Source: Candidatus Woesearchaeota archaeon (GTDB lineage: Archaea > Nanobdellota > Nanobdellia > Pacearchaeales > GW2011-AR1). From it: DNA of 64,000 bases. This document shows, piece after piece, positions 887 through 58,231 of the stretch (the first letter of the stretch is position 1; every line of letters starts with the position of its first letter). The notes under the pieces were generated by a model. It was not told the origin of the DNA and did no database searches. It saw nothing but the letters and a program-made list of their open reading frames with translations. The position numbers were made by a program, and so were the translations under genes. The stretch is taken from contig CAZHOH010000001.1 of the NCBI GenBank assembly GCA_964534185.1, forward strand, positions 19,669 to 83,668. Reading direction: 5' to 3'.

Positions 887-2461
887 CTAGGTCTCGAACT
901 CGACAAGGTAACGCAAAACGTTCTGGTCTTCTTGATAAACGATCCACTCGTTGTTCATCACATGGCTGTAATTCGCCTTGCCAAACACGCTGTGGCAACC
1001 CCCCGGGGGGGAGGTATACCCGCGCGGGCCTGGAGCCAGGAAGGGTTTCCCGAGGACGACGTCGCCGAGGAACATGAAGGCCTTGCGGCCTCGCACTGCG
1101 CCGCGCCCTCCGGACCAGAACGAGTTCTGTAGGCTACAGTATCCCGCGGCCTTCTTCCAGTCGTCGGCCCAGTACGTTCCAGGTCCGAACATGGCTCCTG
1201 TGATGGCTACGCCCACCAGCTTCTTCGGCATCATCAGGCTCTTGGACAAGATTCCGCTGACATTGACGGAGCGGGTGCCGTGGAACAGCAGGGCGGTTCT
1301 GGAGTCCCTATGGGCCGAGAGCGTCCCGTTCAGGTCGGGTCGCGAGCGAGGCGAGAACATAGGCTTCTCCCGGGAACTGGGCTTCTGCGCGGCAATCTGC
1401 GCCTGCTTGGCGTCGAACCGATGGCGGCAGGTCGGCTTGTTCGCCTCCCAGATGTTATGGACCTTCATTTGCCCAAGTCCCCTGTGGAGGTTTCGCGTCG
1501 CCCGGGGCAGGAAGTCCATGATCCACTTGCCTTCCCCCCGGGGGTCAAGCCAGCGCATCTCGAGGTCTATCCCATCCAGGGGATTGCGGGTCATGTCGTC
1601 GATGTCCTCGAGGCTGGTGGACAAGGCTTGCTCGAACGCGTCAAGGTCCTGTTGCCATGTCAGGATGTTCTTTTGCGACAGAACCCACGTGGACTCGTCC
1701 GCGCCGACGGGCTTGACCTTCGGGATGCGCGAGTAGAGCAGCCGACTGAATTCTCTCAGCCGCTTGTCCTTGACCTGACGGTCAGGGTCGTCGCCTACTT
1801 TCGACAGCCGCTTCAGGGCCTCCGTGAGGATGTGCCTACCTTCGTTGATGGCATCCTGGGTAGGGATGCTGTCGTCCGCCATCGAGTTGCGCGTGTAGTT
1901 GGCGGTCGCTACGTTTAGGTCGTGCATCAACTGCATGACCTTCGGATCCGGCAGGGAGTCCGCGCGCCTCGCCTTGCTCGACTTCTTGGTTTTCTTGGCG
2001 GGAGCGTCTCCCGTCTGAATCTTCTTCGCCCCGGGCAATCCGGTCGACCTGGTTGCCTGCGGGCGGACGAGGTAGCAGTCCTTGCCCTTTTTTGCCCGCA
2101 GGGCCTGTATCCCGGAGATCTTCGTCCATTCTCCGCGCTTGTCATTCTTGCTGTGCAGTTGCTTCTCGTATGCCTTCCGCGCCTCGTCCTCGCACATGGC
2201 CATGACGAACTGGAAGTCCGGACGGGAAGCGCCGGTGCGGCCCCACTCGAAATAGGCGTACCATTCCCCCGTCTGCTTGGATCTGACGACGGCCCCGTGG
2301 TAGAACTTGTTGGTGTCCCGTCCGTCCTGGGTGAAACATCCCAGGTCAGCGACCCCAGTGTCCTCGAACTCCCCATCCTTGACCGCAGGAGGGCCAAAGC
2401 ACTCGAAGTCATCGGGGCCATGGCAAGCAGGAAACTGACGTTTTGGTAGTTTGGTAGCCAT
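887..2461 (-). CDS. poly(ADP-ribose) polymerase-like protein (WGR domain + PARP catalytic domain)
   Basis: 524-aa ORF starting at ATG 2461. WGR motif GEWYAYFEWGRTGAS near the N-terminus. C-terminal PARP fold with an intact H-Y-E triad (LLFHGTRS, GPGTYWADD, NNEWIVYQ). Confidence 0.8.
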   Translation of the reverse strand: MATKLPKRQFPACHGPDDFECFGPPAVKDGEFEDTGVADLGCFTQDGRDTNKFYHGAVVRSKQTGEWYAYFEWGRTGASRPDFQFVMAMCEDEARKAYEKQLHSKNDKRGEWTKISGIQALRAKKGKDCYLVRPQATRSTGLPGAKKIQTGDAPAKKTKKSSKARRADSLPDPKVMQLMHDLNVATANYTRNSMADDSIPTQDAINEGRHILTEALKRLSKVGDDPDRQVKDKRLREFSRLLYSRIPKVKPVGADESTWVLSQKNILTWQQDLDAFEQALSTSLEDIDDMTRNPLDGIDLEMRWLDPRGEGKWIMDFLPRATRNLHRGLGQMKVHNIWEANKPTCRHRFDAKQAQIAAQKPSSREKPMFSPRSRPDLNGTLSAHRDSRTALLFHGTRSVNVSGILSKSLMMPKKLVGVAITGAMFGPGTYWADDWKKAAGYCSLQNSFWSGGRGAVRGRKAFMFLGDVVLGKPFLAPGPRGYTSPPGGCHSVFGKANYSHVMNNEWIVYQEDQNVLRYLVEFET

Positions 2462-2485: not shown

Positions 2486-3373
2486 TTACAATAGCCTGCT
2501 TCCTGTGAACTGCCAGTCCGTGAACAACTTCCCGTCCGGGAAGAAGATCAATTGCCGGATGACGTTCGTATCCGGCTCCAGCGTCAGGCAGTTCGACACA
2601 CAGACGTTTTGTCCCCGGAAGTCATAGACAGCGGCGCCGTGGGGCAGTGTGTAGAGCTTGGTCCCCTCCGTCTGAACATGCTCTTGAATAGCCAGACACG
2701 CGAGATCGCTGAGGCGATTCAAGTCGATCCACTTGTTGACCAACGGACTAGTGGTTGTCGCGTCCCACGCGGGTGTCACGGGCCTCCATGTCAGTTGCTC
2801 GACTTTGTTCTCCAAGCAGAAGTCCACGAGGCGCTCGAAGGCCTTCGGGCCATCAACGCCCCCCTTGATGCCGATCGTGGTATACCTTACGATCAGGCCC
2901 GCGTCATGGGCGCGCTTGATGGCGTCCTTCATGTCAAGGAGCTTCTTCCTCTTTGGCCAGTAGATCCTGTGGTTGAGGTCGGGATCCGATCCGACGTTGG
3001 ATATCATGATGGTAGTCATGCCCGCGCTGTACCAGTCGACAAGCATGTGCCCAACCCGATATCCTCTCCAAGTGGATTCCCCGAGGAACGCGCCGTTCGT
3101 TTGTAGTTCGACGAACGGGAATCGACCCTCGAGTTCCGCCAAGTAGGTGTATATCTGATTCGGATAGAGGGTAGGCTCCCCTTTCCCCGTTATGAGGACA
3201 TTGGTGATGCCGCATCTCTCGGCTATCTGCACCGCCTTGCGCAGGTTCCGTATGTTCAATTCGATCAGAACATCGCAGCCTTTGTTCGTCTCCGTCATGC
3301 GCGACACGCAAAACGGGCACTGCGCGTTGCAGGCCTTGGTCCCCGCGACAAGCGACATCGTCTGAAATTTCAT
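2486..3373 (-). CDS. radical SAM protein (subfamily unassigned)
   Basis: 295 aa. CxxxCxxC cluster motif CNAQCPFC near the N-terminus, followed by ITGKGEPTLYP. Confidence 0.7.
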   Translation of the reverse strand: MKFQTMSLVAGTKACNAQCPFCVSRMTETNKGCDVLIELNIRNLRKAVQIAERCGITNVLITGKGEPTLYPNQIYTYLAELEGRFPFVELQTNGAFLGESTWRGYRVGHMLVDWYSAGMTTIMISNVGSDPDLNHRIYWPKRKKLLDMKDAIKRAHDAGLIVRYTTIGIKGGVDGPKAFERLVDFCLENKVEQLTWRPVTPAWDATTTSPLVNKWIDLNRLSDLACLAIQEHVQTEGTKLYTLPHGAAVYDFRGQNVCVSNCLTLEPDTNVIRQLIFFPDGKLFTDWQFTGSRLL

Positions 3374-7769: not shown

Positions 7770-9614
7770 TCACTTCAAACTCAGGACGCCAACCTCCTGG
7801 CGCCCGGTGACGTACACGCCATTCTTCCCAGCGAAGAGATGGCAACCTTCATTCACGAACGGCTCCGTGTCGGGGAACTCCTTTTCCACCTCCAGTAAGC
7901 CGCCGTTGTTCCTGATCCGCCTCAAGCCCTCGTCAGAGGCGCTTAGCAGCATCTTGTCAAACGCCCACTTTCCCCTGATTCCGGATAGCCAGGGATGGTC
8001 GGCCTGGTCGGTCTGCTCCGTCGCCAGAACCTCGCCGTGGCGACTGACCACGTGGCATTCGTTGACCTTCCTCTTGCCCTGCTGCGTGCTCACGAAGAAC
8101 CAGCAGCAATGATCCCCGAAAAAGCAGGTCGAGTCTATCAGTTGGCCGCGAACCTTGACGTTGACGGAGTCGTTGATCTTTCCGTTGACGTCGAATACGA
8201 AGGCCACGCTCAACTGGCCGGCGCGATAGAAGCCCAGGCCGAACTCCGGGCCCACCCAGAAGAGGGTCTGGTTCCTCAGCACGTCGCCTATCCTCTTGTA
8301 TCCCAGTATATCATCACGATAGAGTACACCGTCCTGCAACCAGAACTTATCGCGCCCGTTGGCGTCGAATATGGGCAGGTTGCCGTAGAAGTCGACCGGC
8401 AACTGCTCCAACTTGCCATCCTTGTCCACGACCAGCGCCGGCTTCCCGGACATGCCAATGAGAGTCTGATTCCCGCAGATGCGAAAGCGCATCTGGTGAT
8501 GCGCGGACCCCTTGAGGACCTTTACTCCCCCTTCTCTCCAAAAATGTCCGTCTTCCCAATAGAGCCACCTCATCTGGCCATCCTGCATGGCGGCGAACAG
8601 GATGGTTCCCTTCGTGGAGAATATCTTCTTGTATTCCACGTTGCCCTTGACGACCTCCTTAACGAGCGGAACGACCTTCTGGCACTCCGGGCAGGACTTT
8701 CTCGCGTGCTCGAAGCCGCAGCCCGGGCAGACGCGCCACTGCGTGTTCAGCAACTGCAGCGGGAACGGACCCCGCGTGTCCTTCTCGAACACCTGGCGTA
8801 AGTAGTCCGCCAGGTCGTCCGGCAGGGACTTGAGGGGCCGCGCGGGCTTCGGGTACTTGACCTCCGAGTCAAATACCGTGATCCGGTGCAGGGGCCGCGC
8901 CGGGTGGGGCACCTTGCGCTTCTTGTCCTTGGGACGAAAAACCCCCCCGTATGGGTCAACGAACATCAGGGTCTGCATGACCATGACCGCGAAGGCGTAC
9001 CAGTCGGAGTCCTCGTTGTGGGGCCTGACCAGGACGGGCCTGTTCTGGCGCGCGTCGCACAGCAGGGGATCCACGAATCGCTCCGTGTAGACACGGCAGG
9101 GAAACGTCCTGAACTGCCAACTGTCAGCGTCGATGACGTAGGGCGTATCGCCTTTGACGAGGACGTTGAGGTCGTTGAAGTCACCAACCACCGCGTCCTT
9201 CTCGTGGATCGCCTCGACCACCTGGGCCAGTTTCTTCAGAATCCTGTTGACGACATTGTTGTTGACGCCATGCCGGAAGGACTTCTCTCCATAGCGGAGC
9301 AGAGGCTCTGCCCCCTCGACCATGTCCATCACGTAGCCAACGATCTTTCCTTTCCTGTCGGTCGCAACGTCCAGCGGGACGATGACGTTCGACGGCACCC
9401 CCCGGGGGAACTGGGTCAACTTCTGCTGGTGCTCCTCTATGCGAATCCTCGCGGCCTGGCGCTGGTCGACGGTCAGGTGGTCGGGATGGTTCTCTCCCTT
9501 GAAGACTTTGAGCGCGTGACCACCGGGGATCCGGTAGACGTCAGCTTCGCCGCCTTTGCCTATGCTATCGGTAGGAGCAACGCTTATGCGCTTGCTTCTG
9601 ACGTAGACTTGCAT
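7770..9614 (-). CDS. Ser/Thr protein kinase with Zn-ribbon and a repeat-rich C-terminal domain
   Basis: Motifs IGKGGEADVYRI...ALKVFK (Gly-loop and Lys), VVGDFNDLNVLV (catalytic loop) and VIDADSW (DFG-equivalent). These are followed by CPGCGFEHARKSCPEC and about 280 aa of beta-rich sequence. Confidence 0.75.
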   Translation of the reverse strand: MQVYVRSKRISVAPTDSIGKGGEADVYRIPGGHALKVFKGENHPDHLTVDQRQAARIRIEEHQQKLTQFPRGVPSNVIVPLDVATDRKGKIVGYVMDMVEGAEPLLRYGEKSFRHGVNNNVVNRILKKLAQVVEAIHEKDAVVGDFNDLNVLVKGDTPYVIDADSWQFRTFPCRVYTERFVDPLLCDARQNRPVLVRPHNEDSDWYAFAVMVMQTLMFVDPYGGVFRPKDKKRKVPHPARPLHRITVFDSEVKYPKPARPLKSLPDDLADYLRQVFEKDTRGPFPLQLLNTQWRVCPGCGFEHARKSCPECQKVVPLVKEVVKGNVEYKKIFSTKGTILFAAMQDGQMRWLYWEDGHFWREGGVKVLKGSAHHQMRFRICGNQTLIGMSGKPALVVDKDGKLEQLPVDFYGNLPIFDANGRDKFWLQDGVLYRDDILGYKRIGDVLRNQTLFWVGPEFGLGFYRAGQLSVAFVFDVNGKINDSVNVKVRGQLIDSTCFFGDHCCWFFVSTQQGKRKVNECHVVSRHGEVLATEQTDQADHPWLSGIRGKWAFDKMLLSASDEGLRRIRNNGGLLEVEKEFPDTEPFVNEGCHLFAGKNGVYVTGRQEVGVLSLK

Positions 9615-10408
9615 CTTCTCACCACCACTAGCGTCGTGTCGTCCGGCAGCAGGCCCTTCTGCTCTTCCAGAAGACGGTTCTCGTAATCCACCTTGCGCGA
9701 GTTCCTGTTGATCAGGCGCAGCCGTCGAGAGACGGCGAAGGAGTTCCTGAAGTAGCGGTCATCAGCCCAGAACTGGGAGAGAGCGCCAACCTCCTCGCTC
9801 TTCCCCGGGAGTCTCCGGCGCCTGAGTTCCGGGATGTTATCAACCCCGTCGGTCCCGACAAGAATGGACTCGATGTCCGCCGTCTTCCACTCCCAACGAT
9901 CGAAGGCGCTCCTGTCCCGCTGGTCCGGGTTCGTAACCGCGTATCCGATATAGGACGGCGCGTTGTTCTGGTCGATGGAATGAACGACGAGTCCCTCCGA
10001 CAAGGTGCAGCGGTTAATCAGGCCGTCCCCGCACGACAGCACGGTTGTCTTCTCGTCGTCCATGACCAGGACGATGGAGGTAAAGAGGAAGAAATCTGAG
10101 ACGGCACTCGAGAGGCTGTCACTGACCCATTCCGAGACCACGGACAACTTCGAGGCCACCTCCATGCGCAGCCTCTCCTGGTCGACGCGGCCCAGCCTCC
10201 TTTTCTGCGCCCATGCCGACATCACGAGCATGCGGGCCCCGAGCAGCGCGCCTGCCTCGCTATACCTCCCGCTGCCGCAGCCGTCGCACACGGCCGCGAC
10301 AATTAGGTTGTCGTCGGTCTTCCAGAAGTAGGAGTCTTGGTTGTTCCGGCCGGCCATCTCGTGATCGCGGCCCCTGACGCTCCCACCGGCAATTTGGAAT
10401 CCGTTCAC
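9584..10408 (-). CDS. PP2C-family protein phosphatase
   Basis: GTG start at 10408. Motifs RGRDHEMAGRNNQDSYF, AAVCDGCGSG, VGTDGV and DDTTLVVV. It overlaps the kinase start by 31 nt. Confidence 0.75.
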   Translation of the reverse strand: MNGFQIAGGSVRGRDHEMAGRNNQDSYFWKTDDNLIVAAVCDGCGSGRYSEAGALLGARMLVMSAWAQKRRLGRVDQERLRMEVASKLSVVSEWVSDSLSSAVSDFFLFTSIVLVMDDEKTTVLSCGDGLINRCTLSEGLVVHSIDQNNAPSYIGYAVTNPDQRDRSAFDRWEWKTADIESILVGTDGVDNIPELRRRRLPGKSEEVGALSQFWADDRYFRNSFAVSRRLRLINRNSRKVDYENRLLEEQKGLLPDDTTLVVVRRCKSTSEASA

Positions 10409-13188: not shown

Positions 13189-13288
13189 GGTCCGCGCGCC
13201 TTGGAAAGTTACTTGGGTCCGCGCCGGAGCACGGCGGCGTGACACTAAGTAAAAAAGACAGACTTTTGTCTTGACCAAGGAGCGCGCT

Positions 13289-13933
13289 ATGAGTAACCTG
13301 ACTTTCCGCTACCCCGACGACCCCGCACGGATGCCGGCGGACCAACTCCCCAGACTGGAGAGAATGAGTCCGGGTCTATGGTGGGGGTTTACAAAGGGTG
13401 ACGGATGGCGACGGCCTGCCTACTGCGAAGGGAGTGGAGTCTGGACGTTCCACTCGAAGCGCGGTGACGGAATCGAGGCCCGCAAGTCCCCTCCCAAGGG
13501 GCTAGTCGAACTTTTCTCCGCGATGGATTGGCCTGAAGGTATCGCCATCGACATGGAGTGGATGGGGCCCCGGCTACGGGAACATTTCCCAACCGAAGAC
13601 GACCACGAGTTCTGGATCTTCGACATGACCTACTGCGCGTGGAAATGGCAGGGAAAGACACCCTTTGCAAAAAGGTGGGTGCACCTGTCAGAAATCTTCC
13701 ACGACGCGGCCCGCGGCAAACCCGAGAACTTCCCCCGGGTGAGGCTGCTGGCGCCCTACAAGGAGAACCTGGCGCAGGCGTTCGAGCAGGAACAAGCAAA
13801 CCCCCTGTCCGAGGGCCTGGTTCTGCGGCACGTCCGAGGGCACCTCGTTGGCGACCTCAACGGACCCAGGAAGAATCCGGGCGCCATGAAGAAAGTAAAG
13901 TACCGGAACGCGAAAGAGAAGACTGCATTCTAA
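13289..13933 (+). CDS. minimal ATP-dependent ligase-like nucleotidyltransferase (no OB domain evident)
   Basis: Trimmed to ATG 13289, which has AAGGAG upstream. Covalent nucleotidyltransferase motifs: I TKGDGWR (KxDGxR), III IAIDMEWMG, IIIa FWIFDM, IV EGLVLRH, V AMKKVKYR. Confidence 0.55.
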   Translation: MSNLTFRYPDDPARMPADQLPRLERMSPGLWWGFTKGDGWRRPAYCEGSGVWTFHSKRGDGIEARKSPPKGLVELFSAMDWPEGIAIDMEWMGPRLREHFPTEDDHEFWIFDMTYCAWKWQGKTPFAKRWVHLSEIFHDAARGKPENFPRVRLLAPYKENLAQAFEQEQANPLSEGLVLRHVRGHLVGDLNGPRKNPGAMKKVKYRNAKEKTAF

Positions 13934-15169: not shown

Positions 15170-15682
15170 TTAATCCGTCTTCGCCCCTTTAGGTACCCAT
15201 TCTACGAAGTCAGCGCAAATTTGATAAAATTCCTGACCCTCCTCATCAGGATGGTGGAACGACAATATCTGTATCCCCCGATACAGCCGTGTAGATTCTA
15301 CTGTGAGAAGCCTCCCCTTCAACTCCTCACCCCTTTTCCTGGCCCATTCCTTTTCTTCCTTCGTAGCCCTATCATCCCCTTTGGGCCAAGTCACTATCCT
15401 GAAGAAATCGCCCTTCTTGAATCTGTGAGACATCCTCAATCCTGCAGAGCCAATCTTGCCTCCTCCATGCCCCTTTTTTCCGGACTGCTTATCAAGATAC
15501 AACATCTTAGGAACAACCACCGAAGTATACTCACGTACAGTGTCCTCATCTGGCGAGAACTCACGATCATCTGGATCACAATAAACACGACAATAAGCCA
15601 AAAACCGCGCCTGCAGCTCATCATCAGTCTGCACATAATAAAAAGCGTCCTCACCACTATTCATCATAACCTGGATCAACAT
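15170..15682 (-). CDS. hypothetical protein (170 aa)
   Basis: Trimmed to ATG 15682, which has AAGGAG upstream. Confidence 0.55.
   Translation of the reverse strand: MLIQVMMNSGEDAFYYVQTDDELQARFLAYCRVYCDPDDREFSPDEDTVREYTSVVVPKMLYLDKQSGKKGHGGGKIGSAGLRMSHRFKKGDFFRIVTWPKGDDRATKEEKEWARKRGEELKGRLLTVESTRLYRGIQILSFHHPDEEGQEFYQICADFVEWVPKGAKTD
15455..15487. repeat. 33-bp direct repeat, copy 1 (inside the CDS)
   Basis: CTTGCCTCCTCCATGCCCCTTTTTTCCGGACTG. It matches 31 of 33 positions of copy 2 at 15708-15740. Confidence 0.8.
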
Positions 15683-15707
15683 AATTCTCTCCTTCCTTGC
15701 CCCTGGT

Positions 15708-15740
15708 CTTGCCTCCTCCACGCCCCTTTTTTCCGGGCTG
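15708..15740. repeat. 33-bp direct repeat, copy 2 (upstream of the same CDS)
   Basis: CTTGCCTCCTCCACGCCCCTTTTTTCCGGGCTG, located 26-58 nt upstream of ATG 15682. Confidence 0.8.
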
Positions 15741-15821
15741 GTGGGCGCAGTCCGGACTTAATAAAGACCTCCAAAGACCTCCTCCAAGACCTACCACCGG
15801 TTGCATATTAAAATGCATACT

Positions 15822-18065
15822 TCAGTTGTCAATTTCTTGATCCACGTCCACCCACTGGTTGGCCAAGGGGTAGATGACCTTCATGATCGCCTTGTCAATT
15901 CTATGGCTTTTCCCGTTGATCATGTGCCATATTACCCCCCTCAAAACGGCCGGGGCATCTTTCTGGGCGATTCCTAGCTTCTTCTTGGCCTGCGAGTCGC
16001 CCTTGTCGTAGTGCTTGGCCAGAAAGTCGTTGGCCATGGCCAAGATCCTAGACTTTGCCTCGTCGTACTGGGACTCGATCTTGTCCTTGTATTGCTCGGC
16101 CAGTTCGCGCATTTCCTCCGGAATCTCGGCCATTCGAGACTCCGAGACCTTGCCGTCCGACATCGCCTCCCACATCAAGATGGGCGAGAGGCCCATCATG
16201 ACCTTCGACATGTCCTTGTACCAGTCGGTCTTGACCTTTACCCTGCGGCCGTCCTGAAACCTTATGACGTACCCCTCGAAGTGCTTGGCTTTACTCGCCA
16301 CCTCCAGGCAGTCTTCCAGGCTCAGCGAGTCGTAGCGCCGAACGACATGCAAATCGGCCAGTCTGGCCCACTCCTCGACCAGGTCGCGCGGGTACTCCTC
16401 CCCGGTATGGCGGTTGAAGGCCGCCAGCACGTAGAGCCCCGTCTCGTCGTAGTCCAGGATGATCTTCTGGTCATGATTGATGATCTCGAAGACCAGCGTC
16501 GCCTCGTCCGGCAAGGCCGACAGGTTCTTGCGCGAGATGTACTGTGTGGCCCACTGCGACCCAGGGGAATGGAACGACCCCCGGCTGGCCACCTTGTACT
16601 CGCCCTGGTGGCGGTAGAGGACGCCAAGCCATCCATCCAGCTTCTCGTAGACCTCGTAGGGCTTGTCCCACGGGAGGTTCTCGCGAAGGGTCTCCTCGCG
16701 CTCCCCGAGGTTGAAGAACTTTGGAAACGCCCAGGCCACGCACTCCCCCGTCTCAAGATCATAGATGTGGCCACGGCAGTTCAGCGTCACGTCGTCCCAG
16801 GCGCGATCGAATACACACTGGTCGGTATAGGTGTAGATCGCCAGCCTGTCGTCGTCCGTCCTGTCCCCGCGCAGCAGGCCCGCCTCCATGTACGCCTCCC
16901 TGCGGGCGACGTGCTCGTGGGGGTTCTCCTTACACCCGGGGAAGGAGTTCGTCGCGTAGGCGCGCTTGGCCTGGACGTAGTGGGGCCGCTGGGTAGCGGA
17001 GTCCCAGAACTTCAGGTACCCGCCGAACACGCAGCCGCCGTCAAGGTGGGCGATGTTGTTATAGCATGGCCCCGCGGGGTCGGGGTTGTGCCCGAAGAAG
17101 ACCCTCGGGGCGTCGGACGGCCATAGACGGTTCCACAAGATCCCCGTCTGCGCGTCGAAGTAGGAGTCCCCTCCGTAGTAGCGCATGTAGAGGCAGTCGG
17201 ACCTGAACTGCTCGTCCGGGTCTCGCGTCGGGTCGAATCCCGCGTGGACAACGTAGCCATGGGGAACCCGGAGGATCAGTGGGCAGCCCTTGAGGAAGGA
17301 GACGAACTCATCCTTTACCTGCTCGCCGTCCTCGTCCTGCTGGAACGAGTCGATCGTTGCCTGCAGGCCATGGGCTAGCTTGACCGGGTTGCCCTTGGCC
17401 CAGCGCAGGAACTTGTCCTCGTGGTTTCCAAGGACCATGTGGAGGTTGAGGGACATGAGGTGTCGCACCACCCCCAAGGGGTCTGGCCCTCGGTCGATGA
17501 CGTCCCCTACCGAGACGAGCACGTCCTGCTCGGGACGAAACCCAAGCTCGACGAGGCCCTGCTGAAACTCGTCATAGCACCCGTGTATGTCGCCGACGAT
17601 GATGTAGCGGCGGCCCCCGATCTCATCGCGGACGTCCTTAACGAGGACGCTGCACGGGGCTTCGCCCTCTACTGTCAACTCGTCGGCCTCCCTCCTCGAT
17701 GGCGCCTGGAACTGCGAGAAGTACATGCCGAGGGCCTTTCCCGCGTTCTCCGGGCGCAGCGTGGGATGTTTGCCACGCGAGGCGATCCTCTCGCGGCACA
17801 CGTCGCAGTTCTCGTTCAGCCATACGATCTTAGTGTGATAACCGGCCTTCTTGGCGGGAGACAGGTACCGGCGCCGCTGCTGGCGATTGTGGTTGATGCG
17901 GTCGACGACGACGTTGTCCCCGCGCGCCACTGCCTCCTCGAACAGGCGCAGGTGATCCTTGCCCTGATCGTCCTGGGAAACCCGCACGTAGCCCTTGAGG
18001 TTCTTGTCGCAGTAAGTCGTCTTGCCCGACCCCTGCGGGCCAACCATCAGCACGAGATCGCTCAT
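15822..18065 (-). CDS. trifunctional RNA-repair-type enzyme: P-loop polynucleotide kinase + metallophosphatase + RNA ligase (Pnkp-like domain order)
   Basis: 747 aa with ATG at 18065 and AAGGAGG upstream. Walker A GPQGSGKTT. Calcineurin-like motifs GDIHGC, GDVIDRG and GNHE. C-terminal ligase motifs EKLDGW (KxDG), FEII, EGYVIR and KVKTDWY. Confidence 0.75.
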   Translation of the reverse strand: MSDLVLMVGPQGSGKTTYCDKNLKGYVRVSQDDQGKDHLRLFEEAVARGDNVVVDRINHNRQQRRRYLSPAKKAGYHTKIVWLNENCDVCRERIASRGKHPTLRPENAGKALGMYFSQFQAPSRREADELTVEGEAPCSVLVKDVRDEIGGRRYIIVGDIHGCYDEFQQGLVELGFRPEQDVLVSVGDVIDRGPDPLGVVRHLMSLNLHMVLGNHEDKFLRWAKGNPVKLAHGLQATIDSFQQDEDGEQVKDEFVSFLKGCPLILRVPHGYVVHAGFDPTRDPDEQFRSDCLYMRYYGGDSYFDAQTGILWNRLWPSDAPRVFFGHNPDPAGPCYNNIAHLDGGCVFGGYLKFWDSATQRPHYVQAKRAYATNSFPGCKENPHEHVARREAYMEAGLLRGDRTDDDRLAIYTYTDQCVFDRAWDDVTLNCRGHIYDLETGECVAWAFPKFFNLGEREETLRENLPWDKPYEVYEKLDGWLGVLYRHQGEYKVASRGSFHSPGSQWATQYISRKNLSALPDEATLVFEIINHDQKIILDYDETGLYVLAAFNRHTGEEYPRDLVEEWARLADLHVVRRYDSLSLEDCLEVASKAKHFEGYVIRFQDGRRVKVKTDWYKDMSKVMMGLSPILMWEAMSDGKVSESRMAEIPEEMRELAEQYKDKIESQYDEAKSRILAMANDFLAKHYDKGDSQAKKKLGIAQKDAPAVLRGVIWHMINGKSHRIDKAIMKVIYPLANQWVDVDQEIDN

Positions 18066-18083
18066 CTTGCCTCCTTGCCGGGT

Positions 18084-18112
18084 ATTCTACCAACGCACGA
18101 CAGGTTCGGCAA
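18084..18112 (-). promoter_or_regulatory. candidate sigma70-type promoter (-35 TTGCCG, 17-nt spacer, -10 TAGAAT)
   Basis: Read on the minus strand, immediately upstream of the ribosome-binding site of the kinase-phosphatase-ligase gene. Confidence 0.4.
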
Positions 18113-21163: not shown

Positions 21164-21327
21164 GGGAAGGAATTTTTCTCTCGGCATCCCAACAGGCTGG
21201 TAGGAGGCAACATGGCTCGACAAAGAAAAACCTCGTCCCCCGGGGGACGAGGTTGTTCCTACGGATCCAAGAGGTGCTGGGGCTTCTCGCTCAATCCTCC
21301 GGCCGCGGCCCCACGTCAGGCCAAGGT
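21164..21327 (+). repeat. conserved 5' UTR + leader cassette, copy B
   Basis: No mismatch noted by eye against copy C (reverse complement) over about 160 nt. It contains the palindrome 21229-21254. Confidence 0.9.
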
Positions 21328-23593
21328 CGAGGCCAAGGTCAAGGCCAAGGTCAAGGCCAAGAACAAGGAGGAAGAGACGGTCATCGAACTAGCCTCATTG
21401 AACCCGGACGTCGTCTACTCGACCCAAGGCGGCGGGTTCGGCGACCACTGGCTCCTCTGCGGCGCTCTCCTACAGGCAAGTGAACTGCATGGCAAGCCAT
21501 TCAGGCTGCGCCGGGGCAAGACGAGGGGTGAACCAAGGCCTTTCGCCGTGGACTACCAGGAGTACTTCGACACGCAAGGAGAGATCGTCGAGTCGGACAG
21601 CGAAGCCAAAGTCGTATTCTTCTCCAGGGATGGCGGCAAGAACGACCTCGAAAGGCTCATGAAAGACGGGTATGACAATCCTGTCCCGGAGCGCATCATC
21701 CCCTGGAACTACCTTTTCGAGGTTCCCCTTGCCAAGACAAGAAAAACACACCTTGGATTGCGCTCCAGGGTCATCGCCTATCAGTTCAGGGCCAGATCCA
21801 GAAAGGACATCAAGGAATGCGCCCCCGGGGAGGAGGATCGCTTCCTGGAGGAGGCGGCGCTCGCCGGCTATAGAACGATCGAGGTAGGGAAGCATGTCCC
21901 CTTGGATAGATGTTTGGAAGTTCTGTCATGGTGCGAGTTCTACGTCGGCATAGACACAGGACCTACCCACCTCGCGCTCAACGTCGGCGCGCCGACGTGG
22001 GTCGTCCGCAACGGCGCCGACCTTGACTTTACATACAAGCATAGGAACATCACCGCGCTTCCGCGCCTCGGGGACGCAGGCTCTCTCCTGACGGCCTGCC
22101 AGCCACAAAAGAAAGCCTCCTTCCTCGTCCCCTGCAAGAACCGCTTGGAGTTTGCCAAGCAGACTCTCCCTCTGCTGGATTTCTTCGTGGGACAGGGGCA
22201 CGAGGTCATATTCGTGGACTACGATTGCCCGCAACGATCAGGGGAGTGGGTCAAGAGCAACCATCCCGGCGTGACGGTCATCGAGGTAAAGGACAAGAAA
22301 AAGTATAACGCTGGAGAGGCTCGCAACCTAGCGGCCGCGGCGGCTAGGAACGACTGGCTTTGCTGGATGGACTGCGACATAAAAGTCCATCCGAACTTCC
22401 TGGCCGAGCTGTGCCGCCTGGAAAAAGGCCAGTTCCTGTTCTTCGCCAAGAACGACCTCGTCCCCCGCAGGGGGATGGGTGGCTTGATGGCATGCTCCCG
22501 AGACGCGTATTACGAAGCAGGAGGCTACAGCAGTTACTACGACGAGTACGGCGGCAAAGACATAGAGTTCAAGTACAGGCTCTTCCAGAACGGAGAGGAG
22601 CCGCTGCAAGTCAACCCGCTCTGCGTCGAGCACGTCCCGCACCCTGATCATCTAAGGGTTCAGTTCTACGACAAGAAGAACCGACGGCTCGCGATCAAGG
22701 ACAGCAACGCGGCGCTCAAGCAACGCATGCGGCACTTCGCAAAGAGAAACGAGCCACCCCCGTGGCAATTGAACTATGACAAGGCCGAGTACTCTCAGTT
22801 CTTCAACAAGGTCATCGTCAAACAACTTAGCCTTCATGTCACCGACCATTGCAACTTCAACTGCATCGGGTGCAACCACGCTTCCCCATACTACGAGCCG
22901 AACAATCTCGACCCGGTATGCTTCTCGGAGCCGCTCCAGAAACTGGGGGAATTCTGCTACGCCAAGGAAATACACCTAGTTGGAGGAGAACCCTTCCTGC
23001 ACCCTGACCTGTACGGATTCATCCGCTCCATCAAGGAGAGCAACAAGGTAAGCGACTTCATTCGCCTCTATACAAACGGCTTCTGGCTGTCAGAGCGCGG
23101 CCTGCTGCGTCACGCGCCAGTCCTCGACCAAATAGATGCGCTTCATGTCAGCATGCACCCCGAGTCCCCCGGGGGCGAGGTTGTTGAACAGATGCTGAGA
23201 ACGATCAAGAAGAAACATCACATAGTGGCCCAGAAACACCGTAACGACAGGTTTTACAAGGTCGGGTTTCGAGAATCCCCCGCTGGGAGAGGATCCTGTC
23301 CCGTCAAGAAGTGCATGCACCTGTTGCCTGACGGAAGACTGGTCAAATGTGCCGTCGCGGGCTACTACGCCCCGAAAAGCGAGGATGTTACGAAAGGCTT
23401 CATGGACCATTCCGGATCCGCTTTCTACGATGTGTCCCAGGGAAATTGCGAAAGCTTTGCCAAGTGGTATAATGGCATGGCTCAGTGCTGCAGGTTCTGT
23501 GGCTACGCGGAAGACTCCATACCATACGTGGGCAGAGTTGCAGGAGTTGGTCATGTCAAGAATCAGCGGAACAAAAGAGTGGGCGACGGATAG
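21212..23593 (+). CDS. leader-bearing multidomain protein: GT9-like (GT-B) + GT2-like (GT-A) + radical SAM domain
   Basis: 793 aa. Shared leader plus a K/V/A/E repeat linker. GIDTGPTHLALNVGAPTWVV is heptosyltransferase-like. FLVPCKN...IFVDYDCP...WMDCD is GT2/DxD. LHVTDHCNFNCIGCNH (CxxxCxxC, nt 22850-22873) with LVGGEPFLHP. Confidence 0.7.
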   Translation: MARQRKTSSPGGRGCSYGSKRCWGFSLNPPAAAPRQAKVEAKVKAKVKAKNKEEETVIELASLNPDVVYSTQGGGFGDHWLLCGALLQASELHGKPFRLRRGKTRGEPRPFAVDYQEYFDTQGEIVESDSEAKVVFFSRDGGKNDLERLMKDGYDNPVPERIIPWNYLFEVPLAKTRKTHLGLRSRVIAYQFRARSRKDIKECAPGEEDRFLEEAALAGYRTIEVGKHVPLDRCLEVLSWCEFYVGIDTGPTHLALNVGAPTWVVRNGADLDFTYKHRNITALPRLGDAGSLLTACQPQKKASFLVPCKNRLEFAKQTLPLLDFFVGQGHEVIFVDYDCPQRSGEWVKSNHPGVTVIEVKDKKKYNAGEARNLAAAAARNDWLCWMDCDIKVHPNFLAELCRLEKGQFLFFAKNDLVPRRGMGGLMACSRDAYYEAGGYSSYYDEYGGKDIEFKYRLFQNGEEPLQVNPLCVEHVPHPDHLRVQFYDKKNRRLAIKDSNAALKQRMRHFAKRNEPPPWQLNYDKAEYSQFFNKVIVKQLSLHVTDHCNFNCIGCNHASPYYEPNNLDPVCFSEPLQKLGEFCYAKEIHLVGGEPFLHPDLYGFIRSIKESNKVSDFIRLYTNGFWLSERGLLRHAPVLDQIDALHVSMHPESPGGEVVEQMLRTIKKKHHIVAQKHRNDRFYKVGFRESPAGRGSCPVKKCMHLLPDGRLVKCAVAGYYAPKSEDVTKGFMDHSGSAFYDVSQGNCESFAKWYNGMAQCCRFCGYAEDSIPYVGRVAGVGHVKNQRNKRVGDG

Positions 23594-29643: not shown

Positions 29644-30600
29644 CTATTCCTGGGTCTCCCCCTTGTAGAGAGACGTGCCGAAGGAGTGCAGGTAGTCGGT
29701 GAATACAGACGTCGGGTCAGGATCGCTCCTGATGAGACGGGAGGTATACTCGCTCCTCGAGTCAATCATGTCTATGTAGTGCAGGGTCATCGCCTCGGTC
29801 GTCGCGGGGGCCACGGGCGACCCCCACTCGAGCTTGCCGTGGTGGCTCAGGATCATGTGCAGGACTAGCATCCTCAACTCCTGCGGGAACCCGTCGATGC
29901 CAGAGATGGCCTTGTCCACGTAGTTCGCCCCTAGGAATATGTGCCCGAGCATCACCACCGGGGGGGTTATCTCACGATCCAGGTAGTCCTTGTAGTTCCA
30001 TACCTTGCCAATGTCATGCAGCATCGCCCCCGCGACCAGGATGTCCTTGTCCAGCCTCGGGTTGGACTCGCAGAACGACGCCGCGGCGCGGGCCATCATG
30101 CAGGAGTGTTCCAGCAGACCCCCGCGGAAGCAGTGGTGGTTGTTGCGGGCGGCCGGGAGCTGGCTGAACTTCTGCCACAGTGGCAGCGACTCGAACACCT
30201 TCTTCAGGAGGGCCTTGAGGTGCTCGTTGCTAACCTCGTCGATGTAGTCGAGGAACTCGGTTCCAAGAGCGTCCAGGTCGAAGGAAGACGACATCACGAT
30301 GTCATTCATGTCGTACTCGGACTCCTCCGCGGGCCGCGCGTCCTTGATGGTCAAGCTGTTGATGTTCTTGTAGACGTCGACGTGCCCAGTCATCCGCACG
30401 ACGGTTCCGACGGGGAAGTTGCTTTTCAGGGTCTCCTGCGCCGCGTCCCACATCCGGCCCTCGATCTGGCCCGTCTTGTCGACGAGCGTGGCCTGGATGT
30501 ATTTCGACTGGTTCTTGGCCTTTCGCACGCGCGCCTGTGAGACGTAGAAGCAAGAATCGAATGCCTCCCCGCCGACGAGATCCTTGATCAATGTCTTCAT
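29644..30600 (-). CDS. OB-fold + HD-domain 3'-5' exoribonuclease, YhaM-like
   Basis: Trimmed to ATG 30600. GGLLEHSCMMARAA...AMLHDIGKV HD signature, with an N-terminal OB-like region. Confidence 0.65.
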   Translation of the reverse strand: MKTLIKDLVGGEAFDSCFYVSQARVRKAKNQSKYIQATLVDKTGQIEGRMWDAAQETLKSNFPVGTVVRMTGHVDVYKNINSLTIKDARPAEESEYDMNDIVMSSSFDLDALGTEFLDYIDEVSNEHLKALLKKVFESLPLWQKFSQLPAARNNHHCFRGGLLEHSCMMARAAASFCESNPRLDKDILVAGAMLHDIGKVWNYKDYLDREITPPVVMLGHIFLGANYVDKAISGIDGFPQELRMLVLHMILSHHGKLEWGSPVAPATTEAMTLHYIDMIDSRSEYTSRLIRSDPDPTSVFTDYLHSFGTSLYKGETQE

Positions 30601-30713
30601 AAGCTCCCTCAATTCCAGCGGAAAAGTCCGTTACCGATTCAGATTCTACTACAGGCCCACGCAAGAAGCAAGCCTTGCACGCGCCTTCGCGAATCCGCCA
30701 ACTTAAGGGGATG

Positions 30714-32350: not shown

Positions 32351-32713
32351 ATGAAGGGTCAGCCATGCGAGAACCAGACAACGAAAGGAAATATCGTGGG
32401 GGACACAGAAGATACACAGGCGATCAATGAGGCGATCAATGAGGCCATCGAACTGAATATAATGGGACAGGTTGGAGATCGCGTTCCAGACTATTGTTCG
32501 TCGCTGGACGCCGTAGCGGAGGCAGAAGCCAAGGCAAGAGAGATGGGCCTATGGCACGAGTATGGAAGGGCGCTGAAGGATCTGCTCCTAGGCAACGCCG
32601 ACCTGCTTGTAATGAGCACCGAGCAGTTCATGACAGGAGCTGCGGCCACGGCCGAACAGAGATCCCGGGCCATCCTGTCCGCTGTTAAACAAGCAAGGAA
32701 AGGAAAGAAGTAA
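32351..32713 (+). CDS. hypothetical protein (120 aa)
   Basis: ATG at 32351. Its C-terminal tail SAVKQARKGKK is shared with the next gene product. Confidence 0.5.
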   Translation: MKGQPCENQTTKGNIVGDTEDTQAINEAINEAIELNIMGQVGDRVPDYCSSLDAVAEAEAKAREMGLWHEYGRALKDLLLGNADLLVMSTEQFMTGAAATAEQRSRAILSAVKQARKGKK

Positions 32714-36679: not shown

Positions 36680-36868
36680 CTACAACTGAATGCCCCGCTG
36701 CGCTTCCCAATCAGCTAGTTCCACGCGTTCTCGCTCAGCTCGTTCAAGGATATGGCGAGCAATTTGAAGGGCTTCTGCCCGGGAGATCGGGCGTCCAATC
36801 AAATGTTCAAACTGCTGACCGTCAATATGCACCTTGCCAGTTCCGTCTTGGTCAGTTGCTCCCATCAT
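36680..36868 (-). CDS. small hypothetical protein (62 aa)
   Basis: Tail of ORF 36680..37366, taken from MMGATDQ. It fills the gap between the Thg1-like and AAA genes. Confidence 0.3.
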   Translation of the reverse strand: MMGATDQDGTGKVHIDGQQFEHLIGRPISRAEALQIARHILERAERERVELADWEAQRGIQL

Positions 36869-37730
36869 CGTCAACTTCTCCCAGCAGCAGATCCGCGCGC
36901 TCCTCCCACGGAGAATCCGTCTCAGGCTCCGCGCCATAAAAAAGAACCTCCACCCTGTTCCTAACCTGTCGCAGCGGAGGAAGCACTGCCTCGTGATAGG
37001 CCCTCCTCTGGCAGACGACGGATGACGGCTCATCCCCAAGGGCGATCGCTCGCGTCTTGGTAACGGAAACTTCCCTGCGGATGAAGTACGTCCCCCGCTT
37101 GAAGAATCCAGGATAATCGTCCCAGTGGGCCCCTTCCTGCGAGAGCATGTCCCGTAACTGGTCGGAGTTCTTGTTGACGCACTGCTTGTGTGAGAAAACG
37201 GCGCGGGCGGCGCTCTGCACGCTGTTACGAGTCGCGTCCAACTCGCGCCATAGGATGCAGTTTGCTGCCTCTTCCAGCGACGGAACGTTCCATACGCGAC
37301 AGTCGAAGGAGGCGGTCTTGCCACAGAGCTCGGGAATGCCACCCTCCGCAGGCACGAAGCATCCATTCCTCTTGGTGTTTACCGCTTGGTTAAACTTGAC
37401 CGATGCCATGGCGGCGATGACGCTAACCATCTTCTGTATCTTGCCCCCGAAGAACAACTGTGACGCCGGGTGGTCCGCATGGAGTACGAGGCTGATCTCG
37501 TCGGACTGCGTATACGCGCACCTGGCCCCTGTTTCCTTGGCCAAGTATTTGGCCACCTTGGCCATGGCCACGGACATGCGCCTGTCGTATGGGCGCCCCA
37601 GCCCCCGGGTCATCCTGCTGAAACTGCGGCCATCGACTCGAATGCAAGCGGGCAGGCGAGGCATCAGCCTGCGGCCCGATTCCATCCGCTCGTATTCCTT
37701 CATCCTGTCGCCAATGTCAGTTTTGTCCAT
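36852..37730 (-). CDS. tRNA(His) guanylyltransferase Thg1-like protein (3'-5' polymerase family)
   Basis: GDRMKEYE, IRVDGRSFSRMT, RPYD and AYTQSDEISLVL. Start set at ATG 37730; the ORF track start at 37742 is a TTG. Confidence 0.75.
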   Translation of the reverse strand: MDKTDIGDRMKEYERMESGRRLMPRLPACIRVDGRSFSRMTRGLGRPYDRRMSVAMAKVAKYLAKETGARCAYTQSDEISLVLHADHPASQLFFGGKIQKMVSVIAAMASVKFNQAVNTKRNGCFVPAEGGIPELCGKTASFDCRVWNVPSLEEAANCILWRELDATRNSVQSAARAVFSHKQCVNKNSDQLRDMLSQEGAHWDDYPGFFKRGTYFIRREVSVTKTRAIALGDEPSSVVCQRRAYHEAVLPPLRQVRNRVEVLFYGAEPETDSPWEERADLLLGEVDDDGSN

Positions 37731-37803
37731 TTCCTGCTTCAATCCACCCCGGGGGAAACCTTACTTCGGAAGCCATTTTACCATCCCCCGGGGGCACGGC
37801 AAA

Positions 37804-44557: not shown

Positions 44558-44965
44558 TCAGTTCCCTTCAGTTTTCCACTGGAGGCCCCACTGTATGTTG
44601 CGCGCATCGGCGTAGATGCCGAGCCTTTCCAGTTCCCCGAGCAGCGTGCCGTCCAGCATCAAGACCTCCCTCGGGTTCATCGGATCTGCCATCGTGATGC
44701 CGGCATGGGGCTCGTGCGCATGCTTGACCTCGAACCTTACCGCCTCGACGCCGACCGTGACGAAAGGACTCGTCATTGCCGTGGGCTTCGAGGGCCAGAT
44801 GAACCTGACCTTCGGGTTAAGAAGCCCGAACTTCTCCTGGATGCACTCCTTTATTTCCGCCCCCGTGGCGTCCCGACCTAGTTTGTCGGACTTCTTGTTC
44901 GCGGCCGCGAGGAAGTACTCTATGTTTACCTTGATCATCCGCATCAGAACCACGTCCGCCTTCAT
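44558..44965 (-). CDS. hypothetical protein (135 aa)
   Basis: ATGA overlap with the upstream gene. Confidence 0.5.
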   Translation of the reverse strand: MKADVVLMRMIKVNIEYFLAAANKKSDKLGRDATGAEIKECIQEKFGLLNPKVRFIWPSKPTAMTSPFVTVGVEAVRFEVKHAHEPHAGITMADPMNPREVLMLDGTLLGELERLGIYADARNIQWGLQWKTEGN

Positions 44966-46029
44966 TCTTGCTCCCCTATGGATACGCCGTACCTCTCCTC
45001 GGCCAGTCGCCGGTAGATGGCGGCTATTGCCTTGTAGTCCGGCTTCTTCCTCAGTCTGGTGGTCTTGGCCGCCTCCTCGATCCTCTCGTTGAGAGAATCG
45101 ACGTGGACCATCAGGTCATCATACGTCCAGCCACCGTCGCGAATGTGAAGCAACTCGGCCGCGTCCGGCCTGTACACGTTGACCTGGCAAGACTCGAGGA
45201 TCTCTAGCGCCATCCTGAGTAGCCTGACCAAGTGCATCGCATGCTTCGAGTCGTAGCCCGCCTTGGCCTCCAGCTCGCGCCTCTTCGGGTTGCGCTCACG
45301 GGCCCACCTCGCGTAGGCCTTCCAGTCACCCGCGGCCTCCTGGTACGCCTTCTCCCTGCGGACGGAGTCCCTGTACTCGGGCTGCACATACTCGTCTGGT
45401 ACCGAGAGGATGGCGCCCCGGTACTGCTGCGGCACGGTGGTCTCCTCGGGGAGGCCAAAGGCTTTCCGAGAGGGCTTTTCCTTCGGAGGGTTGAGCAGAT
45501 ACCGACGGTGGTTCTGGATGCGCCTCAACTGCGCGGTGGCGTAGCCCGCGAATGTAGAGCGCGCCTTCTGCGACAGGAACAGCCCCCTCGCGTCACGGAT
45601 GAGCCCCCATTCCTCGGTCTCGTGAAGGATGTTGCGGTCGACGTAGAGGAACTCAATGATGTTGGGGTTGCACTGCGCCGCCAGTTTTATGAACTTGCGC
45701 AGCTCCTGCATCTCCTCGTCCGCACCTGGCCTCCGAACCGTTCCCGCGGACCAGTTCATGTCTCCCTGGTCGACCTGCAGCGCGTGGCCTAGATGCCCCA
45801 TCGCGGAGTCCGGCAACCCCGCCTCCACGGCCTCCAGCGCCCCAACGATGTGATCATGCAGGGATCCCTGCCCGACGAACGACGTGTGGAATAGGTCGAA
45901 TGCGAGGCTAAGGGGAGCCATGAAGACGCCCCTGATGTCCTCGTCGGACTCGGGGGTGCTGGTTCCGTAGGCGCGGCTCCCGGATATGAAGCGGAATATG
46001 CAGTTGCGCGCGGCTTGCTCGTAGTTCAT
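44962..46029 (-). CDS. Pol-beta-superfamily nucleotidyltransferase, RlaP-like (RNA-ligase-associated family)
   Basis: ISGSRAYGTSTPESDEDIRGVF matches the GS-x10-DxD signature of the family I recall as PF10127. Confidence 0.6.
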   Translation of the reverse strand: MNYEQAARNCIFRFISGSRAYGTSTPESDEDIRGVFMAPLSLAFDLFHTSFVGQGSLHDHIVGALEAVEAGLPDSAMGHLGHALQVDQGDMNWSAGTVRRPGADEEMQELRKFIKLAAQCNPNIIEFLYVDRNILHETEEWGLIRDARGLFLSQKARSTFAGYATAQLRRIQNHRRYLLNPPKEKPSRKAFGLPEETTVPQQYRGAILSVPDEYVQPEYRDSVRREKAYQEAAGDWKAYARWARERNPKRRELEAKAGYDSKHAMHLVRLLRMALEILESCQVNVYRPDAAELLHIRDGGWTYDDLMVHVDSLNERIEEAAKTTRLRKKPDYKAIAAIYRRLAEERYGVSIGEQE

Positions 46030-46087
46030 CACGGATCCTCGCTAGATCGCCTAAAGGAAGGATATCCGCACGCGGCGTCCGTTGCAA

Positions 46088-51563: not shown

Positions 51564-51572
51564 TTTCTTCTC

Positions 51573-52262: not shown

Positions 52263-52265
52263 CGA

Positions 52266-53867: not shown

Positions 53868-53868
53868 A

Positions 53869-55274: not shown

Positions 55275-55277
55275 ACC

Positions 55278-58221: not shown

Positions 58222-58231
58222 TTTGCCCCCC

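Follow-up and report, generated by a model that had tools for sequence, protein, structure and literature searches.

What kind of break is a protein with a kinase, a phosphatase and a ligase on one chain made to repair, and on whose behalf? The question is raised by a single gene on a 64,000-nucleotide stretch of contig CAZHOH010000001.1 (assembly GCA_964534185.1, deposited as Candidatus Woesearchaeota archaeon; positions 19,669 to 83,668 of the forward strand), hereafter called the window. The gene (15822..18065, minus strand) is complete, running from an ATG start to a stop codon at 15822-15824; it encodes 747 amino acids (aa), and its G+C content at third codon positions (0.85) is in line with that of the other coding open reading frames (ORFs) of the window. 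Comparison with characterized enzymes makes it probable, in our judgement, that the product is a Hen1-independent heal-and-seal enzyme for RNA breaks that end in a 2',3'-cyclic phosphate and a 5'-OH, most likely in tRNA, and that it serves as a counter-defence.

The ORF contains three collinear Pfam domains, each over its gathering score: a P-loop kinase (AAA_33, PF13671; aa 4-108, 60.8 bits against a cut-off of 27, E 2.4e-16), a metallophosphoesterase (Metallophos, PF00149; aa 153-330, 46.8 bits against 21.5, E 6.1e-12) and an RNA ligase (RNA_lig_T4_1, PF09511; aa 429-616, 75 bits against 28.3, E 1e-20). By these profile scores the three-domain assignment is far beyond chance. An earlier reading made from the letters of this DNA, called here the sequence-only reading, had described a single 747-aa kinase-metallophosphatase-ligase fusion; the ORF is indeed intact, and all the motifs then quoted are found (GPQGSGKTT at aa 9-17, GDIHGC at 158-163, GNHE at 213-216, EKLDGW at 474-479, EGYVIR at 597-602 and KVKTDWY at 610-616). 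Conservation was read from a family alignment of 18 sequences with 22-59% identity, which has 44 invariant columns, including K15, D32, D159, H161, D188, N214, H215, H274, H326, K475, E527, E597, K610 and K612. The fusion protein lacks none of the catalytic residues of the reference enzymes, and those checked are invariant among the relatives except for kinase R93 and ligase F451, which are at least 90% conserved. The proposed domain order, the intact active sites and the logic of end healing and sealing on one chain are all supported. In the AlphaFold2 model (mean predicted local distance difference test score, pLDDT, 92.4) the protein is confident domain by domain; the only stretch with pLDDT near or below 60-79 is aa 373-400 (16866..16949, minus strand), with residues 378-380 below 50, a flexible phosphatase-ligase linker that is also gapped in the family alignment.

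Module 1 (17646..18065, minus strand; aa 1-140; PF13671) is a predicted P-loop polynucleotide 5'-OH kinase, with the P-loop GPQGSGKTT, containing K15, at 18015-18041 and a predicted general-base Asp32 at 17970-17972. Its residues G9, G14, K15, Q31, D32, D55 and R97 are invariant, and Arg93 and Arg97 align with the lid residues R99 and R103 of RazKIN. Among solved chains, the module is nearest to the Mucorales RNA 5'-OH kinases 9drz (1.9e-10) and 9d8a (2.5e-8), followed by the mammalian PNKP kinase (2e-5); Foldseek gives template modelling (TM) scores of 0.72 to the Mucorales enzymes and 0.62 to the Clostridium thermocellum Pnkp kinase. The Mucorales kinases prefer GTP as the donor (PMC11571804). 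The lid arginines are kept in the fusion and the guanine-reading G-loop serine of RazKIN falls outside the alignable stretch; the phosphate donor of the fusion kinase may be ATP or GTP.

These nearest solved kinases also act on DNA: mammalian PNKP serves in DNA repair, and MciKIN takes DNA as well as RNA acceptors (PMC11571804). The fusion might accordingly be thought a DNA enzyme, which would clean 5'-OH/3'-phosphate DNA ends like mammalian PNKP and seal them with its ligase during phage replication or repair; the match to the mammalian PNKP kinase, by sequence and by Foldseek, agrees with such a role, as do the surroundings of the gene, where DNA-metabolism genes are found (for a C5 methylase, an NAD-dependent DNA ligase and an SbcD-like exonuclease). 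The other two modules speak differently. The phosphatase belongs to the Pnkp/lambda-phosphatase clade, not to the haloacid dehalogenase (HAD) type of the DNA PNKPs, and the ligase is of the Rnl1 type, with equivalents of R54, K75 and F77 and with the Rnl1 C-terminal domain; no DNA ligase ranks high among its matches, the foremost one, 3qwu, reaching E 0.49 by sequence. The element, moreover, already encodes a complete NAD-dependent DNA ligase. We regard a DNA end-joining function as most unlikely.

Module 2 (16950..17618, minus strand; aa 150-372; PF00149) is a binuclear metallophosphoesterase, predicted from its relatives to be a 2',3'-cyclic phosphodiesterase and 2'/3'-phosphomonoesterase. 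Its active-site motifs are GDIHGC (17577-17594), GDVIDRG (17487-17507) and GNHE (17418-17429), together with His274 and Gly325-His326, and D159, H161, D188, D191, R192, N214, H215, H274 and H326 are all invariant. It aligns with the 2',3'-phosphatase of C. thermocellum Pnkp (CthPnkp; 4j6o, 6e-18) motif by motif (GDIHGC, GDxxDRG, GNH[ED], HAG and GH) and through the distinctive HGL..T segment, of which L234 and T237 are nearly invariant in the family. By Foldseek the TM score is 0.84 to 2qjc, 0.74-0.76 to 4j6o and 0.77 to lambda phosphatase. The top-scoring relatives of the module resemble hydrolases of diadenosine tetraphosphate (Ap4A) (2qjc, 1.1e-21; NCBIfam ApaH, 2e-23, and PrpE, 8e-23), and the substrate is therefore not fixed by homology alone. 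A phosphatase directed mainly at nucleotides, such as Ap4A, Np4-capped RNA or immune signalling oligonucleotides ending in a 2',3'-cyclic phosphate, would suit these scores, and the protein would then combine signal degradation with ligation, or heal ends as a secondary activity. This seems very unlikely to us: the phosphatase stands between a polynucleotide kinase and an RNA ligase in an order kept in more than 100 clusters of homologs, the kinase-phosphatase pair is collinear with bacterial Pnkp, and the characterized CthPnkp phosphatase, alignable through the HGL..T segment, lies in the same clade.

Module 3a (16206..16865, minus strand; aa 401-620; PF09511, phrog_562) is an Rnl1-type adenylyltransferase domain. 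It carries motif I, EKLDGW (16629-16646), with the predicted AMP-accepting Lys475 at 16641-16643, Glu527 of motif III, motif IV, EGYVIR (16260-16277), and motif V, KVKTDWY (16218-16238), as well as the Rnl1-specific upstream residues Arg431 and Lys449/Phe450/Phe451, F451 being the equivalent of T4 F77. The phrog_562 (RnlA) profile matches at 4.8e-63 over aa 403-735. When the T4 rnlA product, taken from the T4 record, was aligned with 12 family members, R54, K75, K99, G102, E159, E227, G228, K240, K242 and Y246 (T4 Rnl1 numbering) were invariant in all 13 sequences and F77 was at least 90% conserved; we take these to be the residues needed for activity by T4 Rnl1 mutagenesis, K99, the equivalent of K475 in the fusion, being the AMP acceptor. 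T4 Rnl1 is also the best solved-structure match by sequence (fusion aa 411-719 against Rnl1 36-349) and the best match by fold (Foldseek E 6e-20, 352 columns of a 375-residue chain). Module 3b (15825..16205, minus strand; aa 621-747) is an all-alpha domain, the counterpart of the C-terminal domain of T4 Rnl1, which is the tRNA-specificity domain of that enzyme. The HMMER alignment with T4 Rnl1 reaches aa 719, corresponding to Rnl1 residue 349 of 374, standalone phage ligases match the fusion through aa 733, and the model is helical over 614-746. Since the T4 RnlA equivalog profile TIGR02308 scores 65.5 bits, below its cut-off of 242.25, the module is a distant Rnl1-type ligase and not an RnlA ortholog.

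The sequence-only reading had placed the ligase closer to the Rnl2/PF09414 type, a view that has to be given up. PF09414 scores 32.8 bits against 75 bits for PF09511 over the same core, no Rnl2-named chain occurs in the best 60 of 71 Protein Data Bank sequence matches (E <= 1) or in the top 50 fold matches, and the C-terminal domain matches that of Rnl1. The two grounds on which the sequence-only reading would have fallen are both absent: the lysine of the ligase and the metal ligands are in place, and the nearest relatives of the ligase are RNA ligases.

The suggestion that the protein mirrors bacterial Pnkp stands for one half only. The NCBIfam profile of bacterial Pnkp, TIGR04075, aligns collinearly over fusion aa 4-382 (profile positions 10-429 of 851), so the healing half is Pnkp-like as a two-domain unit; with C. 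thermocellum Pnkp it shares the N-terminal P-loop 5'-kinase followed by a binuclear metallophosphoesterase with identical active-site motifs, and that enzyme, like the fusion, has all three repair activities assigned to one chain (PMC3675462). The ligase half departs from this model: the Pnkp-specific ligase module is replaced by one of the Rnl1 type, TIGR04075 as a whole scores 113.5 bits against a cut-off of 750 with positions 430-851 unmatched, and a hidden Markov model (HMM) of the Rnl1 segment matches none of 61 canonical Pnkp ORFs. Bacterial Pnkp, moreover, partners with Hen1, which places a 2'-O-methyl mark against re-cleavage. A Hen1 profile was built from 40 aligned Pnkp-neighbour proteins of the 61 canonical Pnkp loci (one of them matching PF12623, Hen1_L, at 4.4e-113); it matches 59 loci but nothing in the 64-kb window, in the 18 listed sources, amounting to 17 loci, with a fusion or split relative or in any viral locus, in accordance with the earlier failure to see a Hen1 candidate. 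The fusion therefore cannot be counted as a full bacterial Pnkp, on account both of its ligase module and of the missing Hen1. A junction repaired in the absence of Hen1 would carry no 2'-O-methyl group and would stay cleavable, as in T4.

It is the T4 pathway that the fusion resembles most in strategy. T4 Pnkp (PseT) and Rnl1 (RnlA) follow the same heal-then-seal logic: sealing is by an Rnl1 ligase, within a phage and with no Hen1. All essential Rnl1 residues, and the C-terminal domain as well, recur in the ligase of the fusion, which in function would be T4 Pnk and Rnl1 in one protein. The T4 pathway, however, consists of two proteins, whereas the fusion is one chain with a healing half of the bacterial Pnkp type: its phosphatase is a PF00149 Metallophos domain, unlike that of T4 Pnkp, which is a HAD/DxDxT acylphosphatase (PMC3592404). 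BLASTP of the fusion against T4 PseT finds the first 36 kinase residues only (E 4e-4), and the ligase is about 24% identical to T4 Rnl1.

Two other systems bear comparison. Fungal and plant Trl1/AtRNL likewise unites three functions in one chain, among them those of an Rnl1-related ligase and of a P-loop kinase; the fungal Trl1 ligase structures 6n0t, 8rbj and 9r3w are significant fold matches to the fusion, whose kinase is closest to the stand-alone RNA kinases of the Trl1-type pathway in Mucorales (PMC11571804). The order ligase-kinase-cyclic phosphodiesterase of Trl1/AtRNL is, however, reversed in the fusion (kinase-phosphatase-ligase), and the 2H cyclic phosphodiesterase of Trl1 leaves the 2'-phosphate that its ligase requires, whereas the metallophosphoesterase of the fusion is expected to leave a 2',3'-diol; Pfam and NCBIfam profile searches of the fusion gave no match to a 2H domain. 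The Pnkp1-Rnl-Hen1 complex of Capnocytophaga gingivalis is a three-protein heterohexamer that requires Hen1 (PMC4411300). Its modular healing and sealing on separate polypeptides is like that of the split forms of the fusion family described below, unlike the window protein, in which the modules are fused and Hen1 is absent.

Based on these comparisons, we propose the following mechanism. The metallophosphoesterase would open the cyclic phosphate and strip the resulting 2'- or 3'-phosphate to give a 2',3'-diol, and the P-loop kinase would move the gamma-phosphate of an NTP onto the 5'-OH, with Asp32 activating the nucleophile. The Rnl1-type ligase would react with ATP to form a ligase-(Lys475)-AMP intermediate, transfer the AMP to the new 5'-phosphate and join that end to the 3'-OH, and the helical C-terminal domain, like that of T4 Rnl1, may guide the enzyme to tRNAs broken in the anticodon loop. 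The strategy would thus be that of T4 and not that of bacterial Pnkp/Hen1, leaving an unmethylated junction, and the most likely role would be counter-defence against host immunity that cleaves tRNA or other RNA.

The window gene is, by sequence, a clear member of a family of fusions like ORF008 of Staphylococcus phage Twort, which is known from sequence but uncharacterised biochemically. Its members agree with the window protein in the three modules and their order, roughly in length (about 735-780 aa) and in the catalytic residues that are invariant; those from cultured phages, at 22-24% identity, lack the last approximately 60 residues of the C-terminal domain. Contrary to the rarity implied by the sequence-only reading, the same fusion is common in metagenomes and present in cultured phages. 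In a word-indexed protein search, more than 100 clusters (at 90% identity) agreed with the window protein in architecture and length (best non-self match 58% identity, E = 0), and an exhaustive search of 1.84 billion representatives lists about 30 that are full-length at the 50% clustering level. The nearest fusion relatives (50-59% identity) are all uncultured. Full-length homologs from cultured phages include Twort ORF008 (754 aa), Fusobacterium phage Fnu1 gp169 (738 aa) and a protein of Alicyclobacillus phage KKP_3916, all at 22-24% identity (Twort and Fnu1 are lytic), and many further Staphylococcus phages carry one; a 781-aa 'Phosphatase' of Lactobacillus phage 3-521 is a full-length match by structure. 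Such homologs are labelled merely 'RNA ligase', 'tRNA ligase', 'metallophosphoesterase' or 'phosphatase'. HMMs of the three family segments match a single ORF in order in the window and in loci L001-L006, L009, L010, L019, L046, L059 and L089.

A scan of 185,579 species genomes (one per species) with a single peptide pattern returned at least 80 loci; among the 80 listed, the full-length fusions are confined to a few contigs of metagenome-assembled genomes (MAGs) of Gemmatales, Planctomycetota, Flavobacteriaceae and Lachnospiraceae, and about 70 others are canonical Pnkp with a kinase and a phosphatase and without the Rnl1 module. Among the IMG/VR contigs, the fusion or two-domain forms are present on a few, and on about 70 there is a standalone Rnl1-type ligase with that same C-terminal domain.

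The modules also occur apart. A kinase-phosphatase alone, encoded by a standalone gene (P0150), and a ligase alone (P0146) are about 50% identical to the matching halves of the fusion, and locus L090 has a two-domain phosphatase-ligase form. This fused-or-split occurrence argues for work in one pathway, and the kinase, phosphatase and ligase modules therefore appear, from sequence, to be evolutionarily mobile but repeatedly coupled. That the split forms are adjacent genes is unsupported by the 2.4-kb contig of P0150, on which no ligase gene was called downstream of the kinase-phosphatase; the contig of P0146 is too short to show it. In one Flavobacteriaceae MAG contig (L011) the ligase is split just after its KFWNL motif by a 261-aa ORF (9320-10105) with two LAGLIDADG motifs, a homing endonuclease, and no Rfam intron family was found at this insertion at the gathering threshold. 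In the literature searched we found no study characterising any member of the fusion family; the RNA repair survey of Burroughs and Aravind (2016) probably includes this architecture.

On whose behalf, then, would the enzyme work? The phage-like setting assumed in the sequence-only reading is supported by the gene content of the window and by the contigs of relatives, though no structural gene was recognised. The window encodes a sigma-70-like factor, a C5 DNA methylase, a WGR-containing poly(ADP-ribose) polymerase-like protein, an NAD-dependent DNA ligase, an SbcD-like exonuclease, peptide deformylase, PP2C and NIF phosphatases, radical SAM proteins and glycosyltransferases, and by these genes it looks like part of a large phage. 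The window shows synteny with L169, the contig of the closest fusion homolog, which is dense in small ORFs and on which five of the window's genes recur at 46-63% identity; the block of the window comprising a mini-ligase and the sigma factor is syntenic with L173, which has a T4 rIIB-like gene, and a fusion relative in L003 adjoins PIF1 helicase, SbcCD and ClpB genes. A further relative lies on a 557-kb contig (L171; sample 3300041085) deposited as a Promethearchaeota (Asgard) MAG, which has dense small ORFs, GroES/GroEL, ClpS and a mini-ligase near the fusion and may, judging by these genes, be a very large mis-binned phage. Megablast of window positions 8-28 kb found no DNA-level match to known phages.

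Several observations weigh against a phage counter-defence enzyme, in addition to the Ap4A-hydrolase-like phosphatase scores and the DNA acceptors of the related kinases. No phage structural gene (capsid, terminase or tail) was recognised among the ORFs of the 64-kb window scanned with PHROGs, no tRNA gene or RNase is encoded near the fusion, and tRNA and Rfam scans of the window were empty. The predicted TM score of the AlphaFold2 model is 0.56, and the mutual arrangement of the domains is therefore not predicted. Finally, one close homolog (P0040) has an apparently chromosomal setting in Gemmataceae, between sulfatase, secretin and resistance-nodulation-division efflux genes on a 135-kb contig, so that some members may serve a cell in stress repair.

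The last point can be extended to the window itself, which would then be a chromosomal island or a plasmid, with the fusion repairing RNA for a cell (a planctomycete, for example), as housekeeping or under stress. Close homologs binned in Gemmataceae, Gemmatales and Planctomycetota MAGs, the polysaccharide-biosynthesis cluster at 49.5-63 kb and the unrecognised capsid, terminase and tail genes are consistent with such a cellular home. Against it, the gene content is shared with the small-ORF-dense L169, the relatives carry genes typical of large phages (T4 rIIB-like, GroES/GroEL, PIF1, SbcCD and peptide deformylase), full-length homologs occur on IMG/VR viral contigs, and just a handful of the 80 listed species-genome loci are full-length, the others being canonical Pnkp. 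A cellular enzyme is, in our view, unlikely, and a phage-borne repair enzyme is preferred.

The element is, as judged from family matches, unusually rich in RNA-end enzymes besides the fusion. A Thg1-like gene (36852..37760, minus strand; PF04446, 2.6e-28), of a 3'-5' nucleotidyltransferase family acting in tRNA 5'-end repair, shares 49% identity with its Thg1 counterpart on L169; a longer ORF on the opposite strand, without any family match, overlaps it and would wrongly be chosen by longest-ORF calling. An RlaP-family Pol-beta nucleotidyltransferase annotated as 'RNA repair pathway' (44962..46032, minus strand; PF10127, 8.8e-15; phrog_388, 2.7e-54) has a homolog in the viral locus L096, where it stands some 0.7 kb upstream of the kinase and ligase genes. 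The remaining two are an OB-fold and HD domain protein (29644-30612, minus strand) and an Rv2179c-like 3'-5' exoribonuclease (32713-33252, plus strand). A comparative survey of jumbo phages takes this combination (ligases, kinases, phosphoesterases and RlaP) to counter attacks of the host on tRNA, and notes that calcineurin-like phosphatases take the healing role in a few phages (PMC7824862). We infer that the Thg1-like and RlaP proteins are candidate accessories of the fusion. A bolder model, which we put forward as a doubtful one, is that the fusion forms the sealing core of a phage 'trim, refill and reseal' tRNA pathway together with the Thg1-like, RlaP and exoribonuclease-like proteins, and that this domain-swap hybrid of Pnkp-type healing and phage Rnl1 sealing spread among large phages as a Hen1-independent counter-defence. 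Such a pathway, if it exists, could restore tRNAs that lost nucleotides to defence nucleases (RloC-type damage), a loss that, to our knowledge, the classical T4 Pnkp-Rnl1 pair cannot reverse.

No gene beside the fusion offers itself as a fixed partner. An ORF-level BLAST of the window across 15 loci with a fusion or split relative revealed no shared neighbour gene, and all that recurred, at one place or another on the element, was peptide deformylase, one RlaP and one AAA protein; with no conserved neighbour and no Hen1, the enzyme looks autonomous. The 220-aa mini-ligase of the window (13271-13933, plus strand) consists of a ligase-like nucleotidyltransferase domain only (TKGDGW, EGLVLR and KKVKY) and would be smaller than any ligase known to us as functional. 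It falls under the Pfam cut-off (PF09414, 20 bits); its family is small, at 21 clusters of about 200 aa, and some of these bear the label 'ATP-dependent DNA ligase'. It adjoins the sigma-70-like factor in the window and in L173/L174 and lies 2.9 kb from the fusion gene in L171; an obligate partnership was rejected, three other contigs carrying a mini-ligase with no fusion gene nearby. A histidine phosphatase gene (PF00300) stands just upstream of the fusion in L003 (8193-8819) and in L171 (7028-7909), loci otherwise unrelated, and there is no counterpart beside the fusion gene of the window.

As for expression, a Shine-Dalgarno sequence read from the DNA, AAGGAGG (18070..18076, minus strand), lies 4 nt 5' of the fusion ATG. 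The candidate promoter credited to the gene in the sequence-only reading, TTGCCG-17-TAGAAT (18084..18112, minus strand), does exist in the 57-nt gap between the upstream ORF and the fusion gene, and its -10 element has a TG upstream. It is a consensus match without enrichment, four sigma-70-like sites being found in the 4.3-kb region against 1.8 +/- 1.3 in shuffles, and so carries no statistical weight. The best sigma-70-like match of the region, TTGACA-16-TAATAT (10/12; 15805-15832, minus strand), overlaps the last codons of the fusion gene and stands upstream of a 183-aa ORF (15170-15721), whose sole family match is a weak one to phrog_18647 (unknown function).

Other genes of the window deserve mention. 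The poly(ADP-ribose) polymerase-like protein (887-2461, minus strand; 524 aa) combines WGR with a catalytic domain (PF00644, 8e-21), which is uncommon in phage-like elements. A 793-aa fusion of a family 2 glycosyltransferase (GT2) and a radical SAM domain is encoded at 21212-23593 (plus strand), and a second, separate radical SAM protein at 2486-3373 (minus strand); the radical SAM proteins may be linked to nucleic-acid or sugar modification. From about 49500 to 63100 (minus strand) there are about 13 same-strand sugar or polysaccharide genes, encoding UDP-GlcNAc 2-epimerase, SASA esterase, FkbM methyltransferase, sulfotransferase, DegT aminotransferase, GNAT, RmlD-like, two GT2, Polysacc_synt_2 and GT6 proteins. 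The G+C content drops here from about 0.58 to 0.46-0.50 (2-kb windows, 50001-62000), and the cluster was probably acquired separately.

Many recently described antiphage systems cut tRNAs or other RNAs, which makes phage RNA repair a live topic. The fusion overturns no current view and will not surprise a specialist, and together with the Thg1-like and RlaP genes it adds to the evidence of a heavy investment of the element in RNA-end repair. Its family would place healing and sealing in one Hen1-independent chain, common in large uncultured phages and in cultured Staphylococcus, Fusobacterium and Lactobacillus phages. The window protein is a good target for the first characterization of this family, and characterising one member would both annotate hundreds of genes now labelled just 'RNA ligase' and reveal how the Pnkp and Rnl1 lineages recombined.

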